Source of the DNA: an uncultured Ruminococcus sp.
GTDB lineage: Bacteria > Bacillota > Clostridia > Oscillospirales > CAG-272
DNA: 64,000 bases
Assembly (NCBI GenBank): GCA_964621165.1
Contig: CAZULC010000001.1
Coordinates: 204,281-268,280 of the forward strand
Direction of reading: 5' to 3'
Part shown: positions 57,662-58,685 of the stretch, one piece after another
Layout of the letters: each line of letters begins with the position of its first letter
Position numbering within the stretch: position 1 is the first letter of the stretch
Made by a program: the position numbers and the translations under genes
The notes under the pieces: model-generated
What the model was told of the DNA's origin: nothing
Seen by the model: the letters and a program-made list of their open reading frames with translations, nothing else
Databases searched by the model: none

Positions 57662-58231
57662 ATGGGAATGGCTTTATTTGACAGCGGCGGGGATGAAGCA
57701 AAGGAGGCGGAAAAGTCCCGGGAGGTGAATGGCGGGAACACAGCTGCGTCGTTTCACATGTTCTTTCGGTTTTCTTCGGCGGTTGACGCAATGGTCAAGG
57801 CCGTACAGCGGTACAAGAACAGCAAAATGAGCGAGTTCGGGCTGAGGGGCATGCACCTGATGTTTTTGTGTTGTCTGTCTCACGAGGACGGGGGTCTGAC
57901 GTCAAGCGAGCTTGCGGACAGGTGCGGCGTTGACAAGGCGTTCATATCTCGGATAGCGCACGAGCTGATTGTGTCGGGGTATATCGAGTATTCGGACGAC
58001 GGCGGTGAGGGGATCATACAGCGCACGCTTGCGTCGAAGTATAAGAAGAAGCTCCGGCTGACCGAGCGGGGGAATGGGATTATGCCGAGGATCAACGAGA
58101 TGATCGACGAGGCGGTGAAGAAGGTCACGAACGGACTAACGAGTGAGCAGATAAAGACGTTCTATAAGGTGCTGGGCGTGCTAGAAGCAAATTTGTCCGC
58201 CCTCGACGCACAAGCAAACAAATTCAGCTAA
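57662..58231 (+). CDS. MarR family transcriptional regulator
   Basis: Winged-helix region (LTSSELADRCGVDKAFISRIAHELIVSGYI). A palindromic operator candidate lies in its promoter. The start codon is uncertain. Confidence 0.8.
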   Translation: MGMALFDSGGDEAKEAEKSREVNGGNTAASFHMFFRFSSAVDAMVKAVQRYKNSKMSEFGLRGMHLMFLCCLSHEDGGLTSSELADRCGVDKAFISRIAHELIVSGYIEYSDDGGEGIIQRTLASKYKKKLRLTERGNGIMPRINEMIDEAVKKVTNGLTSEQIKTFYKVLGVLEANLSALDAQANKFS

Positions 58232-58685
58232 ACGTTGTCAGCTCAAAAGTTTTGATCGAACCTATTCAAAAGTTCGTAGGGGTCAAGGGGAAGACGCCCC
58301 ATTGTCGCCTTCCGCAGAAATCGAAATTCCCAAGACTTCTAAGGATTTCCTCTCTTTGTTCTTTTCTTCTGGATAAAGGAGAAAAGAATGATCAACGGCG
58401 TGCACCAACTATATTTTATCAAAATGACGTAAACCAAAACCCACTTTATACCAGCCCACGCGCTATTTCAGCCGACTGACTTATTATTTATTCTAAATCT
58501 AAAGTTCTTCTTTTTCTCCTTTAGCGATGAGGAAAAAGAAGCAAAAAGAGGAACTTTTTTGAAGTCTTGAGACCTGACTTCTGCGGAAGTCGCAAGGGAC
58601 GTTTTCCCCTTTTCTCCTGCAAGCCTTTGAAAAGGTTTGATCTAAGCTTTATGGCAACGAAGTGAAGCTGGGAATTAAGTTATCC
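58231..58685. repeat. Family B repeat: complete element with ~150-bp inverted arms and a ~115-bp centre
   Basis: The forward arm is at about 58248-58390 and the reverse arm at about 58504-58685. The arms contain the hairpins CGACTTC-CGCA-GAAGTCG and AAGCCTTT..AAAGGCTT. Confidence 0.85.

Follow-up and report, generated by a model that had tools for sequence, protein, structure and literature searches.

Small interspersed repeats of bacteria

REP/BIME elements and elements derived from IS200/IS605 are hairpin repeats without terminal inverted repeats (TIRs) or target duplications, and are spread by an enzyme which recognises the DNA hairpin. Elements of the REP/BIME type are clustered just downstream of genes in both orientations, sometimes as inverted pairs. 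In Bacillota, the chromosomal repeats bcr1-bcr18 of the Bacillus cereus group are ~100-400 bp long and some of them are thought to act as structured RNA; in bcr1, the ends are MITE-like and the target TTTAT is duplicated. The REP itself is a GC-rich palindrome of 20-40 bp with a GTAG or CGTC tag directly beside the stem (PMC3733652). The Correia elements of Neisseria and the ERIC elements of enterobacteria, both ~100-200 bp, are transcribed within mRNAs and form long hairpins, and cleavage of these hairpins by RNase III (Correia) or RNase E (ERIC) alters the expression of the flanking genes (PMC10969869). MITEs are defined as elements of <500 bp which contain no transposase or other gene, possess TIRs of ~4-30 bp and flanking direct repeats, occur in dispersed copies and have a cognate autonomous IS (PMC10969869).

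The DNA analysed here is a 64-kb stretch (the window) of an uncultured gut Clostridia from an Oscillospiraceae-like lineage, in which copies of a repeat, family B, are scattered between genes. Family B is probably a non-coding, non-autonomous interspersed repeat of ~175-215 bp which bears hairpins and is of the REP/BOX/ERIC kind. As its hairpin core recurs in other Oscillospiraceae, it is best read as a new repeat family within a familiar class of bacterial interspersed repeats. Like REP/BIME elements, full-length units start with GTAG, and they carry hairpins and lack TIRs, a combination also found in elements of the IS200/IS605 type. They differ from REP/BIME in their size of 90-215 bp, in their three or four different hairpins and in the non-palindromic sequence which follows the GTAG; no RAYT or Y1 transposase gene was seen, and a small sample showed no strand bias with respect to GC skew. 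The TTTAT duplication and MITE-like ends of bcr1, compared by description only, were not found in family B.

With BOX, RUP and SPRITE of Streptococcus pneumoniae, family B shares the small, non-coding, intergenic and lineage-restricted character within Bacillota, the extensive predicted secondary structure, the co-transcription with neighbours (predicted in family B), the modular build, and the slow turnover seen as presence or absence in close relatives (Croucher et al. 2011, PMC3049150). They are also alike in that the genome contains another repeat family unrelated to the first, here family A. This is a likeness by description only, with no link between the families and a different host family. 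Family B also differs in having a hairpin core common to Oscillospiraceae genera and no recognisable inverted ends. Correia and ERIC resemble it in size and in their mRNA-borne hairpins, and provide a model for the tail-to-tail pair described below in the marR-ligase mRNA. However, each Correia or ERIC element is an imperfect palindrome bounded by terminal inverted repeats, and Correia also generates TA duplications, whereas a single family B unit is no palindrome and only an accidental pair of units is. The unit of 175-215 nt, free of any transposase or other gene, recalls a MITE, as do its many dispersed copies with 89-92% identity among young ones and varying presence between relatives, but the TIRs of a MITE are missing.

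Copies, boundaries and anatomy of the unit

An nhmmer profile was built from three stretches of the window and run against the complete 64 kb. Exactly three matches were obtained, at 20882-21060 (+, E=1.8e-56), 58496-58673 (-, E=2.4e-52) and 58225-58399 (+, E=2.4e-50), and nothing further appeared at E<0.1. A covariance model of the core (R1) detected the same three loci. The unit boundaries were refined by alignment with six more copies. With the refined boundaries, a full-length unit occupies 20862-21062 (+) in the spacer between yidC and jag, with its core at 20899-21006 (CM match, E=8.7e-24). The other two units are the arms of an inverted pair between marR and an acyl-CoA ligase gene. The left arm, 58220-58397 (+), lacks the 5' extension and has its core at 58240-58350 (E=3.7e-22), and the right arm, 58494-58691 (-), is full length with its core at 58550-58656 (E=1.9e-21). 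The centre between them, 58398-58493, is a unique spacer outside the repeat. An earlier note, made from the letters of the window, had proposed a one-armed copy between yidC and jag, no relation to family A, and a second dispersed non-coding repeat family. All three proposals hold: the motifs which it quoted are present exactly in the 20.9-kb copy, family B forms a separate three-member component in a self-BLAST network, and further copies occur in relatives.

The unit is composed of a 5' extension starting with GTAGAAG, a conserved core of ~90 nt and a 3' module which is a polypyrimidine/polypurine hairpin. In the core, hairpin 1 is followed by GTAGGGGTCAAGGGGAC, which contains a small GGGAC/GTCCC hairpin, and then by hairpin 2 with the loop CGCA. 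The best local alignment of one unit end with the reverse complement of the other was within the range of shuffled sequences for every copy, and with both provisional and refined ends no copy showed TIRs above chance. Matches between the two flanks were AT-rich, 4-7 nt long and consistent in neither length nor sequence; the units also have a fuzzy 3' boundary. No convincing target-site duplications were found around the copies; the empty sites of relatives are too diverged to align. The earlier suggestion of a MITE-like element is retained for the dispersed, non-coding nature of the repeat, and fails for the inverted termini.

The copies contain no promoter or terminator consensus, and a search for outward promoters at the 5' ends of the antisense copies turned up only weak hexamers. 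Since they lack a promoter and terminator of their own, the copies would be transcribed passively within the neighbouring mRNAs. In Rfam 15 at gathering thresholds, a tRNA was the sole match of the window, and scans by E-value with four copies gave inconsistent matches to long hairpins (miRNA precursors) far below threshold. These results go against an independent RNA gene, where the earlier note had suggested a long antisense-capable structured RNA. Searches of plasmid and phage databases with family B by blastn and tblastn gave no match. Neither the window nor the neighbourhood of the copies contained a transposase, no Y1 transposase, RAYT or TnpB was seen, and the ~220 kb examined contained no mobilising enzyme or autonomous partner. 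A small protein encoded by the repeat was also considered and rejected, as no frame escapes disruption by indels of 1-3 nt, and changes of amino acid follow the hairpin pairing and not the codons.

The inverted pair between marR and the acyl-CoA ligase gene

The gene for a MarR-family regulator (57662-58231, +; Pfam MarR_2/MarR) is preceded by a likely promoter, TGTGGTATAAT (57584-57594), and a likely palindromic operator, TTGACAAGTCAA (57607-57618), both conserved in a close relative (L005). Its 3' end overlaps the left arm: the final three codons of the gene and its TAA stop come from the first bases of the arm. The acyl-CoA ligase gene (58717-60420, +; Pfam AMP-binding) lies downstream of the arm pair, and the 5' end of the right arm (GTAGAAGG, - strand) is 25 nt upstream of its start codon. 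No terminator-like or promoter-like site was found on the + strand of 58231-58717, and marR and the ligase gene are probably co-transcribed.

The arms are reverse-complementary to each other, as had been noticed from the letters, with gap-free blocks of 43 nt (74%), 24 nt (79%) and 17 nt (88%) and an overall identity of 65-70%. The long hairpin predicted for the full pair was likewise borne out: 58225-58673 folds into a single long imperfect hairpin at -170.3 kcal/mol, compared to -106.9 +/- 5.7 for shuffled sequences (z = -11.2). The earlier view of the 455-bp element as the repeating unit did not survive. The 455-bp palindrome is two old, diverged units placed tail to tail and the unit is the single arm, because solo copies make up 10 of the 12 examined, the close relative L005 carries the left arm alone at the marR-ligase locus (ortholog at the same position, L005 9766-9948), and no other pair in the family is as divergent as the two arms. 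The left arm is the most diverged copy (65-75% identical to others), and the right arm is closer to the L005 copy L005_a (84%) than to the left arm (~65%). The centre (58395-58500) showed no significant similarity to 21055-21275, to the rest of the window or to relatives, and the segment 21061-21200 beside the yidC-jag copy had none to it either, so the 'centre-like segment' reported near 21 kb is not upheld.

The left arm appears to be an older, 5'-truncated copy which became fused to the end of marR and is common to the sister species. The right arm would be a second, full-length copy, independently derived, which lies just ahead of the ligase gene and points the other way. L005 has neither the right arm nor the centre, except for ~25 nt which resemble the right arm at its outer end and may be a remnant of it. 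This possible remnant suggests that the pair may be ancestral and partly deleted in L005, and not the product of a later insertion of the right arm. In a marR-ligase transcript, the pair would form an imperfect duplex of ~150 bp beside the ribosome-binding site of the ligase gene. Such a duplex is a plausible site for RNase III or barrier to exonucleases, which could uncouple the two cistrons. Once the palindrome is recognised as a chance juxtaposition of two units, it no longer stands as a candidate long structured RNA or complete MITE.

Conserved hairpin core and covariation

Hairpin 1 (TAAGCCTT-TTCA-AAGGCTTA) is situated at 20916-20935 (+) in the yidC-jag copy, with equivalents at 58257-58276 in the left arm and 58620-58639 in the right arm. 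Hairpin 2 (CGACTTC-CGCA-GAAGTCG) is at 20963-20980 (+), with equivalents at 58306-58323 (degenerate, left arm) and 58575-58592 (right arm). Across 12 copies, four of the eight pairs of hairpin 1 stay paired through two-sided changes, and its pairing reaches 95.8% in the + orientation and 99% in the - orientation. Compensatory changes were found in four of the eight pairs of hairpin 2 as well, with variants such as CGACCTC/GAGGTCG, CGAGCTC/GAGCTCG and CGACGAC/GTCGGCG around an invariant loop. For both hairpins together, eight pairs are compensatory and 94.9% of the cells are paired; none of 500 shuffles reached the covariation score, and sliding the partner by one column lowered the pairing to 52-57%. 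The strand preference of the helices is conflicting. GGG/CCC and GGGA/UCCC favour the + orientation, whereas hairpins 1 and 2 favour the reverse, in which hairpin 2 closes with C(UGCG)G, an RNA tetraloop of the UNCG type, and the mismatches of both hairpins become G.U.

More distant relatives were reached by translating the repeat and searching protein databases, which gave 23 and 64 matches to spurious ORFs across the core in other Oscillospiraceae. The peptide variants KPLKRL, ELLKKL, KLLKKF, NPLKRV and NFLKKV are consistent with compensated stems of hairpin 1; two of the stem variants were seen directly in the DNA alignment and the others were deduced from the peptides. The DNA of one distant locus (L017) confirmed a common core of ~90 nt. 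This locus has a tail-to-tail pair of core copies at 14061-14149 (+) and 14210-14290 (-), which is explained by two convergent genes, each with a sense copy before a shared bidirectional terminator. It is possible, though rather unlikely, that the core (hairpin 1, GGGGTCAAGGGGAC/GTCCC and hairpin 2 with its invariant loop) is an undescribed functional RNA or ssDNA domain conserved across Oscillospiraceae. If true, it could be a 3'-end module for mRNA stability or processing or the recognition site of a hairpin-specific recombinase, and family B and its relatives would be vehicles of this domain and not plain junk repeats.

Distribution in relatives and mobility

The 12 copies examined, all with strong E-values, are the three of the window, two in L005, four on another contig of the same close relative (L016) and three short core copies in L017. 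Nine of them come from ~105 kb of two sister genomes, across which the copies are 65-92% identical. The second L005 copy is situated in the 5' UTR of marR and has no counterpart in the window. Three of the L016 copies (L016_a, L016_b and L016_c) are 89-92% identical to one another, and L016_a lies inside a prophage between the phage terminase and portal genes. The yidC-jag copy, which is antisense to both genes and has its 5' end 14 nt upstream of the jag start codon, is missing from the same spacer in the relatives L014 and L015. Neither family A nor family B was found at loci L010-L012 of more distant relatives, where the ligase is 68% identical. Between the sister genomes, three of four comparable sites differ in the presence of a copy; exact pairs of empty and filled sites were not obtained, the sister-genome spacers being too diverged.

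These differences suggest that copies were gained or lost at different intergenic sites across the sister genomes, and that they multiplied recently in the sister lineage, the prophage included. On this ground, the unit probably is, or was until recently, mobile DNA. The likeliest route of spread would be a trans-acting enzyme with the hairpin core as its recognition site, as in elements of the REP/RAYT or IS200/IS605 type, since the presence of hairpins and the lack of TIRs and of convincing target duplications make such an enzyme likelier than a cut-and-paste transposase acting on inverted ends. A replication-strand bias found no support: within this small sample, the G-rich strand carries the copies of the window and L005, and the C-rich strand those of L016. 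This inconsistency with GC skew counts against a strictly strand-specific single-strand mechanism. A composite transposon around the 592-aa gene between two L016 copies was also rejected, as the gene encodes a zinc-ribbon/SLH surface protein and no transposase.

In the orthologous genes which flank the copy shared at the 3' end of marR, identity at four-fold degenerate sites is only 42-58%, against 75-79% for the copy itself. Elsewhere, orthologous intergenic DNA of the two genomes is likewise 77-84% identical, so this conservation is not specific to family B and could reflect function rather than mobility. A strict pattern search (GGGGAN{12,20}CTTCCGCAGAAN{6,14}CAAGAC) gave three matches in GTDB representatives, two in JGI metagenomes and one in viral contigs. 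By nhmmer all of these were chance matches, therefore the species of the window is not among the GTDB representatives.

Alternative explanations

The earlier note had held that a lack of further copies, together with a lack of transcription, would reduce the structure to a local duplication/inversion. An event confined to this locus, without any wider family, would agree with only three copies in 64 kb and with the chance matches of the strict-pattern scans, but it is already refuted by six further copies at unrelated loci of a sister genome, three of them the closely similar L016 copies, and by the related core in other Oscillospiraceae. Another alternative is a classical MITE. Here the 455-bp inverted structure would be the complete element, moved by a cut-and-paste transposase acting on its inverted ends, and solo arms would be half-elements left by deletion. 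The strong fold of the long arms (-170 kcal/mol), the second tail-to-tail core pair in the distant genome L017 and the possible 25-nt remnant in L005 speak for it. We nevertheless find this explanation very unlikely. The 10 solo copies have well-defined ends of their own, without TIRs or convincing duplications; the arms, only ~65% identical, each resemble solo copies at other sites more than one another; the sequence of the centre is unique; and the L017 pair is accounted for by its convergent genes.

The interspersed repeat has also to be set against two readings in which a structure within the unit is what matters. The core could be a cis-acting RNA module useful to the host, e.g. a stability or processing element of the 3' UTR or a dock for an RNA-binding protein, kept at gene ends by selection with dispersal as a secondary matter. 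Sequence conservation far above that of four-fold degenerate sites, the copy at the marR 3' end included, argues for it, along with two covarying hairpins, invariant loops and conserved unpaired stretches across genera, and the UNCG-type tetraloop and G.U pairs of the reverse orientation. Nine of the 12 copies are co-oriented with a neighbouring gene, and seven of these lie just past the stop codon or terminator of the upstream gene (two overlapping the stop, three at 8, 13 and 36 nt past it and two just past a terminator); the other two are in the 5' region of the downstream gene. We consider this doubtful all the same, as three copies are antisense to their neighbours, two are in 5' regions, one is inside a prophage, three of the four comparable sites differ between the sister genomes, the helices give a contradictory strand signal and no Rfam family matches. 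Far less probable is the proposal that, through its 3' module, the element is an intrastrand-triplex (H-DNA) repeat like those linked to genome instability, with the triplex as its functional feature. In the left arm this module (58348-58385, +; TCCTCTCTT-TGTTC-TTTTCTTCT-GGATAA-AGGAGAAAA) is a polypyrimidine mirror repeat followed by a polypurine run, which forms a hairpin and is formally capable of a triplex. The ITxF criteria ask for three compatible stems of 6-15 nt with loops of 1-6 nt and <=1 mismatch (PMC4666352). The left arm and its ortholog agree with similar criteria (three stems of 8-10 nt, loops <=8 nt, <=1 mismatch per pairing), and this pyrimidine-motif site is unique on both strands of the window, 10 shuffles giving none. 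However, seven other family B copies fail because of bulges in the middle strand, as read from the alignments, and distant core copies have only a short TTCCTCC/GGAGGAA hairpin or nothing in its place. The module lies outside the conserved core, and as a conserved feature the triplex motif found no support beyond the left arm and its ortholog, to which its strict form is limited.

Implications for annotation and gene expression

Family B was absent from every library searched, and its unit boundaries and the covariance model R1 are now defined. The core is supported by covariation and found again in several gut Oscillospiraceae. Should the core prove to be the site of a hairpin-specific enzyme or an RNA module of 3' UTRs, it would offer a way into the genome dynamics of a gut family that is poorly cultured. 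Short-read assemblies are broken by repeats of this sort, which can also change the expression of genes co-transcribed with them, here marR-acyl-CoA ligase and yidC-jag. They also give rise to spurious "hypothetical proteins", at least 64 database clusters being translations of this repeat. As a side observation, the Logan contigs of the window organism (1.6-1.9 kb) end inside repeats.

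Family B copies in the window and their genomic setting

A profile was built from the alignment of the three stretches named in the earlier note and was run over the 64-kb window. It matched three family B copies, at 20882-21060 (+, E=1.8e-56), at 58225-58399 (+, the left arm, E=2.4e-50) and at 58496-58673 (-, the right arm, E=2.4e-52), and no further match below E=0.1 was present in the window. The single-armed copy proposed near 20.9 kb is thereby real, and the motifs quoted for the arm are found there as written. The two arms near 58 kb are reverse complements as described, aligning in gap-free blocks of 43 nt (74%), 24 nt (79%) and 17 nt (88%). 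The long hairpin foreseen for this pair was recovered as well: 58225-58673 folds as one imperfect hairpin of -170.3 kcal/mol, compared with -106.9 +/- 5.7 for shuffles (z = -11.2). The supposed centre-like segment near 21 kb was not found, as 58395-58500 is not significantly similar to 21055-21275 or any other sequence.

The window covers the replication-origin region of a chromosome, with gidB, parA between two parB-like genes, mnmE, jag, yidC, rnpA, dnaA, dnaN, gyrB, gyrA, infB and nusA. The 58-kb pair is flanked by a MarR-family gene (57662-58231) and an AMP-binding acyl-CoA ligase gene (58717-60420), whose homologues are named, for example, from Eubacteriales, Clostridia and Ruminococcaceae/Oscillospiraceae MAGs. 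The third copy occupies the spacer of jag (18700-20847, -) and yidC (21272-22426, -). Transposase genes were found neither in the window nor beside any family B copy examined. The orientation of the copies showed no consistent pattern relative to GC skew. The skew itself is positive over almost the whole window regardless of gene orientation, with its sole sign change near 2 kb and not at dnaA (23.9 kb), which reflects either a switch displaced from dnaA or distortion by G-rich spacer tracts.

The single arm is the unit of family B

In a sister organism, the syntenic contig L005 (GCA_037193895.1) encodes a ligase 89% identical to that of the window and possesses two + strand copies of family B. 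The first is exactly at the position of the window's left arm and overlaps the marR stop codon. The other is inserted in the marR 5' UTR, between the conserved promoter/operator (about 8900-8960 of L005) and the ribosome-binding site, where the window has nothing. Both the right arm and the centre are absent from the marR-ligase spacer of L005, which measures 220 bp vs 485 bp in the window. Similarly, the yidC-jag spacers of two relatives (L014 and L015) lack the window's copy, and altogether three of the four comparable sites differ between close relatives. Four more copies are present in another 19.8 kb of the sister assembly (L016). Three of them (L016_a, L016_b and L016_c) are mutually 89-92% identical, and family B has therefore multiplied recently in this sister genome. 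One L016 copy, at 17710-17886, fills the spacer that separates a phage terminase gene from a portal gene, and a 92-aa 'ORF' was called across it; the surrounding 16366-19788 is a prophage-like block (terminase, portal, scaffold).

Alignment of all nine family B copies gave a full-length unit of ~200-215 nt, composed of a 5' extension starting GTAGAAG, the core, and a 3' module of polypyrimidine/polypurine sequence that ends near GAACTATAAATC. In the marR copies the 5' extension is missing, and their first bases encode the last marR codons and the stop. The 455-bp palindrome had been taken as the element; the unit is instead the single arm. The left and right arms share 65% identity, the lowest of all family B pairs, while the nearest copy to the right arm is L005_a (84%). 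Judged from these site and identity comparisons, the 455-bp structure is two old family B copies lying tail to tail, and neither a recent inverted duplication nor a unit. About 25 nt similar to the right arm's outer end (TTTCTATATAT vs CTTCTACATAT) survive in L005, hence the pair may be ancestral and partly deleted there.

Structure of the core

Covariation was scored on the core alignment of 12 copies from three organisms, with 500 shuffles. Hairpin 1 (8 bp, loop TTCA) and hairpin 2 (7-8 bp, loop CGCA) each have four pairs which remain paired through changes on both sides. Paired cells amounted to 94.9%, falling to 52-57% when partners were slid by one column, and none of the 500 shuffles reached the observed score. 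The small GGGA/TCCC hairpin and the GGG/CCC closing helix are nearly invariant. In the reverse orientation the mismatches of hairpins 1 and 2 become G.U and hairpin 2 closes with a UNCG-type C(UGCG)G loop, while in the forward orientation G.U pairs fall in the other two helices. Such a mixed strand signal would be expected of hairpins acting in DNA or on both transcripts, and points to neither strand as the one that folds. The 3' module of the left arm formally qualifies, on published criteria (PMC4666352), as a pyrimidine-motif intrastrand triplex, the only one in the window. The module is bulged in other copies and is a short hairpin only in distant relatives, and the triplex motif is treated as a lineage-specific curiosity.

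Distribution of the wider family

A strict family B DNA pattern gave only chance matches in large DNA collections. The repeat was therefore translated in an open frame, and protein databases were searched for spurious ORFs predicted over related repeats. The three window translations, combined in a profile, retrieved 23 representatives, and a profile of 16 such peptides retrieved 64 clusters (ENA, NCBI, JGI). Their names include Clostridia bacterium, Huintestinicola sp. and Candidatus Merdivicinus, the latter two being genera of Oscillospiraceae. Public catalogues thus hold at least 64 protein clusters that are translations of family B or its relatives (hits P0241-P0317). Translation of hairpin 2, the GGGAC/GTCCC hairpin, GGGGTCAAGGGG and hairpin 1 gives the peptide common to them, ...GVSTSAEVDKGRCPLDPYKPLKRLDLNF.... 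The peptide variants KPLKRL, ELLKKL, KLLKKF, NPLKRV and NFLKKV are consistent with further compensated hairpin-1 stems, two of them seen directly in the DNA alignment and the others inferred from peptides. An abundant set of peptides, in which ...FRSCGSDHGLCPLDSHKPLKRLDRNFY... follows a recurrent hydrophobic stretch (MQIIGS.QIVT.VTS...), points to a longer related repeat in some other lineage. The ORF P0243 reads through three tandem units, and its end, from our reading of the peptide, resembles an antisense tRNA gene.

One spurious-ORF match led to L016 and another to L017, a JGI metagenome contig from a different organism with three short copies (~90-110 nt) representing the core and a small 3' hairpin. 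The covariance model of the core (R1) recovered the 12 copies with E-values of 3e-30 to 5e-16 and nothing else in the 220 kb scanned. The hairpin core is unexpectedly widespread.

Position relative to genes and conservation

Nine of the 12 copies have the same orientation as an adjacent gene: seven follow closely on an upstream gene, and two occupy the 5' region of a downstream gene. Among the seven, two overlap the stop codon, three begin 8, 13 and 36 nt past it, and two are just past a terminator. In each of the three antisense copies the 5' end falls 14-25 nt upstream of a start codon (that of jag, of the ligase or of the phage portal gene). Of the two ends, the 5' end lies closer to a gene boundary in 9/12 copies, a sample too small to separate target preference from survivorship. 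A tail-to-tail pair also occurs in L017, where two convergent genes each have a sense copy in front of the bidirectional terminator that they share; the convergent arrangement explains that pair and is not applicable to the window's pair.

Four orthologous genes compared between the window and L005 share only 42-58% identity at four-fold degenerate sites, while the compared family B copies are 70-84% identical (79% for the shared copy at the marR 3' end). Other intergenic DNA of the two genomes is 77-84% identical across the greater part of each spacer, with family A or promoters making up much of it. The repeats are thus held well above the neutral level, a property not unique to family B. 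Selection could act on the copies or on whatever propagates them.

Possible mechanism and relation to known repeats

Family B is a dispersed non-coding repeat that bears hairpins and has been gained or lost at differing sites in sister genomes. A protein-coding reading was rejected, and so was a self-contained transcription unit, as no sigma-70-type promoter or intrinsic terminator lies inside the copies. A known plasmid or phage element was ruled out by lack of similarity in either collection. The Rfam search suggested earlier matched no family at gathering thresholds, and E-value scans of four copies gave nothing consistent; the only match at gathering thresholds in the window was a 90-nt tRNA (36669-36758). 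By its ends family B is not a classical MITE: terminal inverted repeats did not exceed chance, and no target duplication was convincing. In view of these absences, a trans-acting enzyme recognising the hairpin core, REP/RAYT- or IS200/IS605-like, probably propagates the family.

The main rival holds that the core itself is a cis-acting RNA module under selection at the 3' ends of genes. Conservation, covariation and position bias are all in line with such a module, but it accounts poorly for the copies that are antisense, in 5' UTRs or in the prophage, and for the differing presence between sister genomes.

As for the 58-kb pair, a likely marR promoter (TTGCAT...TGTGGTATAAT, extended -10 at 57584-57594) and a putative, probably MarR-binding operator (TTGACAAGTCAA, a perfect palindrome at 57607-57618) are conserved in L005. 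A second exact copy of TGTGGTATAAT is at 36572-36582, ahead of the tRNA. Given this likely promoter, and as the search of the marR-ligase spacer turned up neither a terminator nor another promoter, the pair would be transcribed inside the marR-ligase mRNA. There it is predicted to form an imperfect ~150-bp duplex whose end lies 12 nt from the Shine-Dalgarno sequence of the ligase. As in Correia and ERIC elements (PMC10969869), on which the analogy draws, this duplex is a plausible RNase III or exonuclease-barrier site which would uncouple the two cistrons.

In behaviour, family B resembles pneumococcal BOX/RUP/SPRITE (PMC3049150), ERIC and Correia elements and REP/BIME, although it differs from REP/BIME in size and in the tagged single palindrome, and from MITEs in missing their tested defining feature, the inverted ends. 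It is filed with the small structured interspersed repeats, a known kind; no description of this type in Oscillospiraceae was found in the literature.

Family A and other repeats

Self-BLAST of the window revealed 7.1 kb (11%) of repeated DNA. Family A forms one network of 23 intervals, and the three family B intervals form a separate component, in agreement with the earlier view that the two are unrelated. Family A (~200-400 nt) is far commoner and makes up most of the 7.1 kb. Its intervals include 5230-5653, 12080-12410, 16177-16595, 18091-18610, 25572-25965, 28278-28484, 28875-29101, 31419-31872, 32807-33163, 44901-45255, 46674-46853, 49026-49344, 52799-53010, 60411-60727, 61479-61823 and 63311-63649, besides others. 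It occupies nearly every long intergenic spacer of the window, often starting directly after a stop codon. Family A contains the hairpins GCTTCTTGAAAGAAGC and GGAGATAGCTTnCTATCTCC as well as the long-range inverted repeat GAAGCTGTGCA/TGCACAGCTTC. The sister genome has it too, with 10 intervals in L005, and more distant relatives lack it.

Both families are flanked by short G-rich tracts of one strand (GGGGTGG, GGGGGAG) and matching C-rich CCGCACCCCCTCCCCGT, sometimes duplicated (window 18070-18135 and 61425-61470; L016 9540-9640; 3' flanks of L016 copies), which could be another small repeat or low-complexity spacer. Tandem internal repeats lie in or adjoin coding regions at 39497-39803, 40095-40410 and 11518-11764 of the window. 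The infB N-terminal region holds a tandem array with periods of ~24-72 nt, with a 106-nt duplication just upstream of the ORF, and another array is inside a MORN-repeat protein gene. In the relatives' yidC-jag spacers (L014 2722-3001, L015 2554-2780), other modules, TTGCGGCAGCTATGCCACATGGTCGTGGGATTTG and CCCGCGGGGGCTTCCCCGCAAG, are found in place of family B, and they resemble sequences adjoining family A copies at 18478-18610 and 42813-42906 of the window.
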